This document shows, one piece after another, positions 15,001-18,000 of a stretch of DNA of 64,000 nucleotides; position 1 is the stretch's first letter; every line of letters begins with the position of its first letter. Origin of the DNA: an uncultured Candidatus Saccharibacteria bacterium (GTDB lineage: Bacteria > Patescibacteriota > Minisyncoccia > Phycocordibacterales > UBA1006); NCBI GenBank assembly GCA_964415895.1, contig CAYQCC010000002.1, positions 5,413 to 69,412 of the forward strand, read 5' to 3'. Made by a program: the position numbers.

Positions 15001-18000
15001 CTTTGTACCTGACCTTTTAGTTTCACGCCTTTTGACCGGTTTAAATGCAGTCGAAATTCTCGTAAAACGTTTTCGTTTATCTGTGAAACATCATCAATCT
15101 TTCCGAACTCAAAAAAAACATCTAGATAATGCTCGTAATTGCGAACCGTGTTCAATGCGCGTCCACGTTCTATTTCTACATATTCTAAAAATTGTCGTTT
15201 TAGATCTTGAACTGTCATAAAATATTTAGTAATTCGGAAGTTTTTTGTTTTCTCAACCTGCGGAACGCAAGCGCCCTCACGCGACTTCGTCGCTGCGGGT
15301 TCGGTCCTCGATTGTTCAAACAATAAAACTTCCTACTTACTTATATTATATCACAATCTTTAATGAGAAGTTTTCAGCGTTTTCTGATATACTTTTTAAT
15401 ATATGATGCCGTCAGCGCAAAAACAACAAGTCAAAACCTCTGGCGGCGCAACTGTGACAACGACGGTTACGACAACCACAGCAGCAGCGGCTCCATCTGC
15501 TAACTTTACTCAGGCAGAACTGGGATCACGAAGTCTCGCGCGCAGTATTGATAAAAAAATGAATGAAATGAATCAGCAGAAATCCGCTTCAAACAACGGT
15601 GTATTGGATCGAGTATTAGCTCGTGAAGCAAAAACTGTTTCGGAAGATACAACATTTGGTTCGACTGCTGTCACTACTGATATTCCATGGCGCATCATGC
15701 AAATAATTAATAAGCATGGAATTCAAGCAACAGACATCATCAGAATGATTCATTTACCTGGTGCAACATATTTTAGTGTTTCGCATATGGTGGATGGCGC
15801 AAAAAAGTACACAACGTTTTCAGTTGATGAAGTTGTCGATGTGCCAGAAGAGGAGGTTGAAGAGTCTGAACTCGAGGAAGTAGAAGAAGTTGCAGAGCCT
15901 GAATCAGTTGTAGAAGAAACTCCTGATTATCCTCCGACTGCAATTCCAAATTTTGGAAATACAAATACGCTTGGAACGATTGGGGTTGCACCTGCGCCTG
16001 CAACGACACCAGTTTCAGAAACGGTTCCTCCTAATCCAGTTGCAACTATTCCCGAAGTTCTTCCAACTGAACCAAAAATAATTATTGCACCGATTGAAAT
16101 TGTTGAACCTGTTAAAGAAATTGTTTCACCAGTGCGTGCTGCATTTGATAATGCGCGATTAGCATCGGCAAAAGAATTTTCCGCATATTATTCTAATCAT
16201 TATAAAGAGCGACAGACAGGAACATTTAATCAGTTGTTCGGAAACAATCAAGAAGTTCATGACACATTGTTCAAGACGATTAATGAATATCAACTTGCAA
16301 AGAAAGATTACTTGAAAGAATTCTCGCAATCGCATCCATCAATCAAATTAAGTATCGAAGAAATTCGTAACGAACAATTACGATTAGCAGATATGTTGTC
16401 GCATCAGAAACATGGAACATTCGCAAAAGTTGCTCATACATTCAAATTAACTATTCCAACTGTTATCGAAACACGCAACAGAATTATTGGAACAGCGGGG
16501 AAGTCTACGCTTGCACCCATTGCAGAACGACTTGGTATTCACGGTTTAACTGATAACGAACCAATCTGGAAAAAATTATTTACAAATAGTAACTCTGAAA
16601 AAAATATACCGATCATTAAAGTTTCGCCAGTGTCTAGTTCTCTGGTCACTACAACCAATCCAAGCATTGTTGAATCGCAAACAGAAGTTGCACCTGTAGT
16701 TCTAAAAAAAGTGAATCGTAAAAAATTGTACGATTCACTACATGGTATGATTTCGAAAGCTTGGAATATTAATCAGCCGAAATTTGTAAATGCTGCACCA
16801 GTCGCGGAACCAGTTTCGATAGTTGTTCAGCCGGTAATCCAACCTGAACCACAACCTGTTGCATCAGTTCCTGTTATCGAGCCTGCAATGCAATTTGTAC
16901 CAGAACCAGTTATTGAAACGATTCCAGTTGCCGAACCTCCTGCAGCTGTAGAGCAACTAGTAGTCACAGTACCTGCGCCATTATCATTTTCGCCAGATAA
17001 CAAACAGCACCCAGAGCATTTATTCAATTAATTTCTGATTTATTTCAGATTATCATTATATGGACGCAACAACCTTTCGCGAATTGTTAATCAAAGAGTT
17101 TAGCTTGGCAGAACTACCTGTCGATGAGCAAACAGAATATGTCGATCAGTTAGGTGAGCTTGTATTACAAGGAGTTTTGATCAAGTCTTTGGCAGCCCTG
17201 GATAATGACCAAGCAGCCCAACTGGAAACCTTTATAGATAGTGGAAAAGAGGTAGAAGAAATTCTTGAATTTCTACAATCATCAATTCCGGGATTTATAG
17301 AGCTTGTAAACGATGAAATAAAGGCAGTACAGGCAGATTTGGCGGCAAGTATGGGTCAAGAAATGTAATAATAACTTATAAAGAAAACCACTGTAATAGT
17401 GGTTTTCTTTATAAAAATAAGGCTTATTTAGGGATAAATTTTGACATATATAATATTATATTGTATATAGGTGACATAGTACTTGACTTATTTCTAGAAA
17501 AGACTATACTACGTGTAGGGTTTTTATGTTTCTAGACCTTAGGGTCTTCAAACGACAAACGTCGTTCACTGTTACACTACTTTTTGTAGGGTAGCAGTTT
17601 TTTTTATTTACTTGGACACTTGACTTTATTTTAGGATCTAGTATACTGTTACTAATAGTACAAATATACATAACACTTTATTGTCTGTTGCGGAGCAAAG
17701 ACGGTTGTTGATTTCATAGTTTTTGATTTTAGGTTATTAATTGTGTTGAGTGATTTGTGTGCTAAGGCTAGTCTCGATCTTGGTTTATCCAGATTGAGAA
17801 CTAGCTTTTTTTATTAAAAATCATGATAAGGTGTAGGTAGAGCTGTTATCAAAGAAATAAGGTTCATGTTTCTCATAGTTGTCTGTCAGGACACAGCTTA
17901 AGGGTCTCGTTCGATTTCTCGACAGGCTTTTTTATTTTGCAAATTTTGGAACGACGACCATGAATGGTATACTCGTACCCATGAATGAATTCGCTTACTT

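Follow-up and report, generated by a model that had tools for sequence, protein, structure and literature searches.

What fills the long non-coding gap in front of pcrA is the question raised by the stretch of DNA analysed here, 64,000 nucleotides of an uncultured Candidatus Saccharibacteria bacterium (assembly GCA_964415895.1, contig CAYQCC010000002.1, positions 5,413 to 69,412 of the forward strand). The whole stretch is called the window below, and positions are counted from its first letter. Patescibacteria (the candidate phyla radiation, CPR) are ultra-small bacteria with tiny genomes; they account for much of bacterial diversity, and most of them have not been cultivated. In the window the gap extended from 17369 to 17959, or up to 17980 if pcrA starts at the ATG at 17981. 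With about 590 bases, as assigned by a crude gene caller, it was the largest internal non-coding stretch, the median intergenic gap being 62 nt. The original prediction, made from the sequence alone, had considered the region exceptional, rightly so, and had read it as a pair of paralogous small RNA (sRNA) genes. Our results indicate that the gap is probably an island of independently transcribed, non-coding sRNA genes, limited to one genus- or family-level clade of Patescibacteria. In each unit a short RNA would be transcribed from a strong sigma-70-type promoter and end at an intrinsic terminator. Judged from their sequences, the units appear to be new, lineage-specific sRNA genes of ordinary architecture that fall into two or three families.

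Promoters, predicted transcripts and terminators in the window

The two 28-bp promoter units of the original prediction were located correctly. P1, the promoter of RNA1 (17483..17510, plus strand), and P2, the promoter of RNA2 (17620..17647, plus strand), had identical hexamers and spacers of 16 nt; both read TTGACT-16-TATACT and agreed with the consensus at 10 of 12 positions. They were the only exact matches to TTGACT-N16-TATACT in the 64 kb. With at most one mismatch there were 3 matches versus 0.37 expected, and TATACT is the usual -10 form of this genome. The third near-match, TTGACA-16-TATACT with one mismatch, lay at 769-796 on the minus strand, in the ~900-nt stretch 1-909 at the window edge, to which the same crude caller assigned no gene.

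In agreement with the prediction, no open reading frame (ORF) followed either promoter: between 17369 and 17878 there was no plus-strand ORF of at least 25 aa. The single ORF listed in this interval, 55 aa on the minus strand (17504-17671), was rejected as spurious, since it had no conserved gene call in relatives and overlaps P2 and RNA1. RNA1 is predicted as a transcript of ~90 nt (17515..17606, plus strand) made up of a 5' core, a hairpin at 17551-17566 and the terminator T1, a stem of 12-13 bp at 17568-17598 (plus strand) with a UUUUU loop, followed by U8 at 17598-17605. The predicted RNA2 is ~159 nt long (17654..17812, plus strand) and comprises the hairpin H1 with a GGA loop (17681-17704), the conserved single strand AUUUCAUAGUUUU (17711-17723), an insertion and the terminator T2, whose long, imperfect stem covers 17765-17807 and whose U7 covers 17806-17812, all on the plus strand. 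RNA1 (17517-17608) folded with -27.3 kcal/mol (z = -4.7) and RNA2 (17654-17812) with -46.8 kcal/mol (z = -4.6); in both cases 0 of 200 shuffles were as good. The structured sequence expected after each promoter was thus present, and the claimed products of about 85 and 155 nt came close to the lengths predicted here. Both hairpins with U-runs were also found, T2 with the expected U7 and T1 with U8 instead of U9. A simple terminator scanner overlooked T1 as well as T2, probably because their stems are imperfect and hold few G-C pairs.

RNA1 in the clade

By its PcrA the window belongs to Patescibacteria (Paceibacteria/Nomurabacteria-like). PcrA of the GTDB species representatives was ~50% identical to that of the window, except for one C-terminal fragment at 76%. 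Protein searches with PcrA and the 102-aa protein upstream of the gap gave ~27 PcrA clusters at 76-97% identity, after which identity dropped to 63%. The comparison drew on 11 lineages of this clade of Patescibacteria, whose PcrA is 77-97% identical; they were found via the flanking proteins and are numbered L081 and so forth, L081 being one close metagenome contig. Most of the clade kept the gene order integrase, unknown protein of 520-590 aa, protein of ~100 aa, gap and pcrA, with a UPF0102 gene in the place of the integrase in L174, L176, L180 and L182. The gap position was non-coding and 71-675 bp long in all lineages compared at the DNA level. The only gene calls in relatives' gaps were one of 69 aa in L178, which spans promoter, core and terminator, and one of 53 aa on the minus strand at the end of the L164 contig. 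No gene or pseudogene stood at this position in any relative, so the original prediction held against the possibility of a degraded coding gene. As a measure of divergence, the 102-aa gene was 56-78% identical in nucleotides across the clade comparisons, and the third codon positions of pcrA were 54-66% identical in the three lineages that aligned without gaps.

Against this background the 5' core of RNA1 was strikingly constant. In the window it occupies 17515..17547 on the plus strand (GUAGGGUUUUUAUGUUUCUAGACCUUAGGGUCU), with ~19 nt single-stranded and then the hairpin AGACC/GGUCU at 17534-17547. The 33-nt consensus, GUAGGGUUUUUAUGUUUCUAGACYUUAGGGUCU, was near-invariant in 8 lineages; as DNA it reads GTAGGGTTTTTATGTTTCTAGAC(C/T)TTAGGGTC(T/A). 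Identity to the consensus was 31-33 of 33 positions in seven lineages, and the L180 core had four changes, one of them a 1-nt deletion, and two of its three UAG triplets were altered. The window core equals the consensus apart from the known C/T position, and P1 is intact. There was one copy of the core in the 64 kb, matched by the covariance model R1 with 52.9 bits (E = 4e-8). In all 10 RNA1-type copies of the relatives the -10 hexamer ended exactly 4 nt before GTAGGG; it was of the TATACT type (TACACT in L174), with a -35 of (C)TTGAC(T/A) lying 16-17 nt upstream. This fixed distance indicates that the conserved block of RNA1 begins at the predicted transcription start.

While the core hardly changed, the terminator stem of RNA1 differed in every lineage; in the R1 alignment all 11 of its pairs showed compensatory changes and 100% of the cells were paired. 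When the partners were slid by 1-3 columns, 17-51% were paired, and none of 500 shuffles reached the observed values. Purifying selection thus acts on the 5' domain and on the pairing of the hairpin. The terminator loop GCAAU (GCAAC in L165) was conserved in 7 of 7 relatives though all 11 stem pairs change, which suggests that the loop of RNA1 does more than terminate. The window RNA1 has no GCAAU loop and carries an extra hairpin and a different terminator instead; it is ~90 nt long versus 62-69 nt in the relatives. Within the core there is a direct repeat, UAGGGU...UAGGGU, and three mutually exclusive short helices are possible: AGACY/GGUCU, CUAG/UUAG and UAGGGUUU/AGACYUUA. One apparent compensatory change in L180 concerns CUAG/UUAG, and the core is too invariant for a choice among the helices to be made.

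Second copies of the RNA1 type were found in L174 and L178. In the long form of L174 (L174b) an inserted hairpin of 27 nt separates GUAGGGUUUUU from AUGUUUCUAG, and a different hairpin stands in place of AGACU/GGUCU. In the RNA2 of the same lineage, which precedes RNA1, the H1 loop holds an inserted hairpin as well. Insertions in the form of extra hairpins point to modularity at the RNA level; a change such as that in L174b is how structured RNAs evolve, unlike protein-binding DNA sites.

Searching related genomes for the units, as had been suggested with the original prediction, thus recovered the RNA1 core in 8 lineages and the RNA2 family in relatives. When blastn, R1 and R2 were applied to ~86 pcrA loci of the ~50%-identical Patescibacteria, none was found, the search covering pcrA neighbourhoods only. 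In six samples the breaks of Logan k=31 contigs coincided exactly with the borders of the 32-nt RNA1 core (L163, L168-L172 at 3' ends and L175 at the 5' end), indicating that these 31-mers also have other flanking sequences there. Either sister species that share the core occur together in these samples, or the core is multicopy in each genome.

RNA2, a second family

In the relatives RNA2 is ~90 nt long, compared with ~159 nt in the window. It starts with H1, a GNRA-capped hairpin of the form AUUGAUUGCC-GNGA-GGCAAUUGGG, followed by a U-rich (GGGUUUUUCAUAGUUUUAUGGUUUUU) single strand with the conserved UUUUUCAUAGUUUUAUGGUUUUU, and ends in a terminator of ~16 bp that begins at GUGG and often has the loop CCUUUGGG. 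A counterpart of P2, with TTGACT, a spacer of 15-17 nt and a -10-like hexamer, was present in L081, L161, L165 and L180. The model R2, built from four lineages, found the L081 copy, which was outside the model set, at E = 5e-12. In the R2 alignment 87.6% of the cells were paired, with 5 compensatory pairs, versus 26-53% for slid partners; the terminator helix alone was 85.5% paired, with 4 compensatory pairs.

The window copy was strongly diverged from its family. Its H1 is longer than in the relatives and a lineage-specific insertion of ~45 nt precedes the terminator. Nevertheless, its core, AUUUCAUAGUUUU-UGAUUUU, matched that of the relatives at 19 of 21 positions and lay at the corresponding site (a local alignment score equalled by 0-3 of 300 shuffles), and the 5' arm of T2 (GGCUAGUCU) was still recognisable against the family. 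Since R2 scores of ~14-30 bits are not diagnostic, the copy was assigned by synteny together with the significant local alignment, and from these it appears to be a diverged ortholog of the RNA2 family. A further R2 match at 34264-34354 (plus strand; 30 bits, filters off) was set aside as a probable false positive made of two back-to-back terminators between convergent genes. It has a U-rich linker and a CCUUUGG loop, and UUUUUCGUGG there resembles UUUUUCAUAG of RNA2.

R1 and R2 did not find each other, indicating that RNA1 and RNA2 are two families; apart from GGGUUUUU..AU and the likeness of their extended -35 (ACTTGACTTTATTT), the two kinds of unit had nothing in common. Of the proposed pair of paralogous sRNA genes, the two independent ORF-less units therefore stand and the paralogy of the RNA bodies does not. 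Tandem duplication does seem to have taken place within the RNA1 family, to judge from the two copies of L174 and L178 and a degenerate third unit of the window.

The third unit and the turnover of the island

The third unit (17857..17933, plus strand) is RNA1-like and degenerate: it consists of AUAAGGUUC-AUGUUUCU, a 7-bp stem (17881-17887 with 17921-17927) and U6. R1 gave it 13.3 bits (E ~0.5, filters off), and the region 17813-17960 folded no better than shuffles (z = +0.4). It may be a decaying paralog. Its position is that of RNA3, which in most relatives lies directly 5' of the pcrA promoter as a unit of promoter, short RNA (AUAGUUAGU...), hairpin and U-run, with a 5' end that reads AUAGUUAGUAG.... 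This hairpin with its U6 had been missed by the original prediction, as had the pcrA promoter (17946-17973) and an element at 17440-17469, both described below.

Order and number of the units varied between lineages. For example, the gap of L165 held four plus-strand terminators, L174 had RNA2, RNA1, the long RNA1 and a fourth unit in this order, and L182 had RNA2 plus RNA3. In L173/L179, L176 and L177 the gap measured 71-180 bp and pcrA was kept without RNA1 or RNA2. The variable order, number and presence of units indicate that the island gains and loses units between lineages.

The right edge of the island is formed by the promoter of pcrA itself, TTGGAA-16-TGgTATACT (17946-17973, plus strand), which is followed by the probable leaderless start ATG (17981-17983, plus strand). 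All 11 lineages had TGnTATACT-N7-ATG at the pcrA start. The window and L081 were free of substitutions relative to each other in 17960-17990, while synonymous changes occurred just downstream. From this pattern pcrA appears to start at the ATG at 17981, rather than at 17960 or at the TTG at 17879, and to be leaderless. This would not be unusual here: an SD-like (Shine-Dalgarno) motif preceded only 5 of 60 window genes, and a -10 hexamer lay 5-9 nt before the ATG in at least 14 of the 60. The pcrA promoter lies 3' of all small units, so pcrA mRNA would contain none of them, which argues against a role as leader or attenuator. The units are independent of pcrA.

Left flank and neighbouring genes

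Directly 5' of the gap lies the DUF5663-like gene of 102 aa (17060-17368). Its bidirectional terminator at 17376..17414, in which a perfect inverted repeat of 17 nt encloses a loop of 5 nt, forms the left edge of the island; the terminator scan placed it on the minus strand, and weak Rfam matches there (E > 0.1) are explained by the hairpin alone. Between this terminator and P1 we found the conserved upstream element TTTGACA...TATATTGT (17440..17469), which is AT-rich and partly palindromic. TTTGACA(C)AA, followed ~10 nt on by TATATTGT, also stands 5' of P1 in L081, L161, L171, L165 and L178. The -10-like hexamer of the window copy, TATATA, falls short of the promoter criteria. The element may serve as an operator, or it may be what is left of the divergent minus-strand promoter (TTGTGT-17-TATAGT) found in relatives.

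That promoter belongs to a possible divergent sRNA unit on the minus strand, RNA0(-), which was seen at ~955-1097 of L081, 3313-3506 of L161, 3310-3480 of L165 and 2030-2180 of L171, between the terminator of the upstream gene and P1. It combines TTGTGT-17-TATAGT with a conserved UAUACAAAGCUAGAA, and in L161 there is a terminator with a U-run on the minus strand; the window has no such unit. The RNA0(-) RNA would be complementary to the RNA1 core; the predicted duplex reached -23.9 kcal/mol in L165, a value equalled by 4 of 200 shuffles, and was weaker elsewhere.

The genes around the island encode PcrA, HU, an integrase and two unknown proteins. The integrase is an XerC/D-type tyrosine recombinase (14217-15323, minus strand), and the larger unknown protein has 542 aa, low complexity and no Pfam match (15403-17031, plus strand); in many of the clade's lineages, synteny with the island holds for both. 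A Pfam scan of 8 neighbouring proteins found neither a Nop nor a Cas domain. The second-largest non-coding gap, 20039-20386 (minus strand), separates the HU gene from tRNA-Gly(UCC). Relatives conserve two of its features, the terminator of HU and a promoter, TTGACT-17-TATTCT (20348-20320), and 3' of this promoter come a hairpin with a U-run (~20270-20225) and two further hairpins. The hairpin with the U-run contains GGGTTTATGTTGCTGG, which is faintly similar to the RNA1 core (R1, only 8.2 bits). This element may be another sRNA or a tRNA leader.

Coding potential and known families

The mini-ORF of RNA1 would give peptides of 6-23 aa with unrelated tails, and the RNA2 core of the window has no AUG. 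RNA1 as a mini-gene was rejected, since the 1-nt deletion in L180 shifts the frame after the second codon and the nucleotide sequence is still conserved; RNA1 is thus not coding.

A check against Rfam, also suggested with the original prediction, yielded no family for the window gap or for the relatives, 6S, SRP, tmRNA, riboswitches, ctRNA and FopS included. At the gathering threshold Rfam 15 found one tRNA only in the whole window; in a relaxed scan of 17300-18050 the best match had E = 0.12, and the consensus forms of five relatives gave no match. The matches to ctRNA_pND324 and STnc430 (E ~0.1) were discarded because they concern only the terminator of the upstream gene. The RNA1 core was not found in IMG/VR viral contigs or phage records, and the sole match of a plasmid search was a 33-nt chance match. 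An array of the TIGR or CRISPR type was rejected, there being no repeat family beyond the two promoters and no Nop/Tas or Cas protein nearby. So was a type I toxin-antitoxin system: the small ORFs are not conserved, and the one candidate for a complementary RNA, the possible minus-strand unit of the relatives, has no counterpart in the window and would pair with the non-coding core.

Possible mode of action and alternative explanations

If the units are transcribed as predicted, the RNAs would act in trans through their invariant single-stranded segments, and the terminator hairpin would provide 3' end formation and stability. As the likeliest mode we tentatively suggest base-pairing with other RNAs. 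Since the genome is nearly free of SD motifs and many mRNAs are leaderless, the targets would be 5' ends of mRNAs or coding starts. In the consensus of the RNA2 family, UUUUUCAU is the complement of AUGAAAAA, the commonest gene start (8 of 60 window genes), and the window copy reads AUUUCAU; a pairing of UUUUUCAU with AUGAAAAA at gene starts is speculation.

Several observations weigh against this interpretation of the island and of its RNAs. Each RNA family rests on only 5-8 independent sequences. The window RNA2 reached only 14 bits with R2, below the likely false positive elsewhere in the window, and the third unit has no convincing promoter; the changes in the RNA2 core and the promoterless third unit could reflect a partial decay of the island in this genome. 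The absence of the units from several lineages of the clade implies that they are dispensable or have been relocated. When the cores were compared by RNAduplex with the 60 translation-start regions of the 64-kb window, nothing rose above shuffled seeds. Finally, an invariant block of 33 nt exceeds the typical sRNA seed of 7-12 nt, so that a protein or ribonucleoprotein (RNP), or a very conserved RNA partner, fits at least equally well.

It is accordingly conceivable, if somewhat unlikely in our judgement, that the RNAs are real and bind a protein or RNP instead of pairing with other RNAs, the 33-nt domain, with its direct repeat, and the GCAAU loop being recognition sites that sequester or scaffold a conserved factor. 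Besides the invariance of the entire block, the retention of GCAAU/GCAAC in all 7 relatives speaks for such a role, as do the missing mRNA target and the precedent of functional terminator loops in sRNAs (PMC11979758). However, the neighbouring genes include no candidate binding protein, two of the three UAG triplets are changed in L180, and the window copy lacks the loop. A bolder version, which we regard as unlikely, makes RNA1 a cross-species and possibly multicopy module, whose 33-nt domain docks on a universal partner (ribosome, RNA polymerase or a core RNP) or on a component of the host of the episymbiont, and which RNA0(-) controls in the relatives.

The other explanations would deny that the units are trans-acting RNAs at all, and each of them has little to recommend it. 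The units might be mRNAs of micropeptides (MFLDFRV..., from the AUG at 17526) or of hydrophobic peptides like type I toxins: this AUG lies 11 nt from the predicted 5' end with AGGG before it, the first 7 codons are conserved through their nucleotides, and some RNA2 frames are hydrophobic. We consider this very improbable. The L180 deletion alters the peptide after residue 2 and leaves the RNA conserved; the tails of the peptides are read through terminator stems, with 7 aa for RNA1 and 3 aa for RNA2 in L165; the 11 untranslated nt at the 5' end and the synonymous positions vary no more than the codons do; and in a genome that rarely uses SD motifs and favours leaderless starts these AUGs fit neither type. 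If the units instead adjusted read-through into pcrA in cis, as a stack of attenuators or insulators or as a leader, this would explain why they lie immediately 5' of pcrA and on its strand in every lineage that has them. Such a role is nevertheless highly unlikely, because every unit comes with a promoter and with a terminator that looks efficient, the pcrA promoter stands 7 nt before the ATG and after all terminators, and L173/L179, L176 and L177 retain pcrA without RNA1 and RNA2, besides the variable order and number of units. Nor is there much reason to believe that the conserved block works as DNA, for instance as a site of an XerC/D-like integrase or of another protein, or as part of a mobile element. 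The tyrosine recombinase gene 2 kb upstream in many lineages, the contig breaks at the core edges and the gain and loss of the island would agree with it, but the core lacks the dyad symmetry of Xer/dif sites, its repeats being direct, neither terminal inverted repeats nor target duplications flank the units, the core has one copy in 64 kb and was not found in viral contigs, phages or plasmids, and co-occurring sister species sharing the core explain the breaks equally well. The 4-nt spacing from the -10, the covarying hairpin with its U-run and the hairpin-shaped insertions are moreover properties of RNA. That all these features are chance or non-functional, decaying sequence in this genome is just as hard to credit: the departure of the window RNA2 core from the consensus and a third unit that folds like its shuffles would be in keeping with decay, whereas RNA1 is intact and RNA2 keeps a consensus promoter, H1, most of its core positions and a strong terminator. 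An island of sRNA genes thus remains the probable explanation.

Comparison with known small RNAs

Among known systems, the trans-encoded sRNAs RybB, MicA and OmrA/OmrB of enterobacteria offer the closest parallel in form. They have an autonomous, conserved single-stranded 5' seed starting at +1, and the OmrA and OmrB genes are adjacent and in tandem. Like them, the units described here have their own promoter, 60-160 nt without ORF, a conserved 5' end, a variable middle and a Rho-independent terminator. However, they are related to them neither in sequence nor in Rfam, their 33-nt block is U/G-rich and their host is SD-poor and largely leaderless. To our knowledge, Hfq-type biology is not known from a Patescibacteria genome of this kind. 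Tandem or multicopy sRNA loci are familiar from LhrC1-4 in Listeria, PrrF1/PrrF2 in Pseudomonas and Qrr1-5 in Vibrio, and the FopS family (RF04319) of Bacteroidetes is paralogous as well. The head-to-tail arrangement in one intergenic region and the varying copy number, with 1-2 full copies of RNA1 plus degenerate ones, are similar to these loci, but the two main units here belong to different families and are not siblings. FopS itself gave a match at chance level only (E = 4.7; 17.9 bits versus a gathering score of 56).

The TIGR arrays of CPR bacteria and phages consist of ~36-nt repeat-spacer units on one processed transcript beside a Nop-domain Tas protein (PMC12045711). They share with the island the tandem small RNAs in Patescibacteria genomes; unlike them, the island has no repeat-spacer units, each unit has its own promoter and terminator, and there is no Nop/Tas or Cas protein nearby. 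In the action of SdsR, RseX and ArrS on fepA, loops of intrinsic terminators take part, likely without base-pairing, and in E. coli these cases depend on Hfq and RNase E (PMC11979758). The GCAAU/GCAAC loop of RNA1 in 7 relatives likewise looks functional, which is an analogy only, and the window RNA1 differs in its terminator, with a UUUUU loop.

Significance for Patescibacteria

The literature that we searched describes no sRNA regulators for Patescibacteria. The locus provides two or three comparatively validated sRNA families with clean promoters and terminators, and the models R1 and R2 can be used for the annotation of metagenomes and for searches in metatranscriptomes. If the units are ordinary lineage-specific regulators, this is a useful annotation and no surprise. 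If the docking module and RNA0(-) proved true, the island would amount to an RNA/anti-RNA switch complete in itself, within a phylum without described riboregulation. In either case the classic mechanism of SD occlusion would be closed to sRNAs here, and their targets would reveal how riboregulation works in an SD-poor and often leaderless system.

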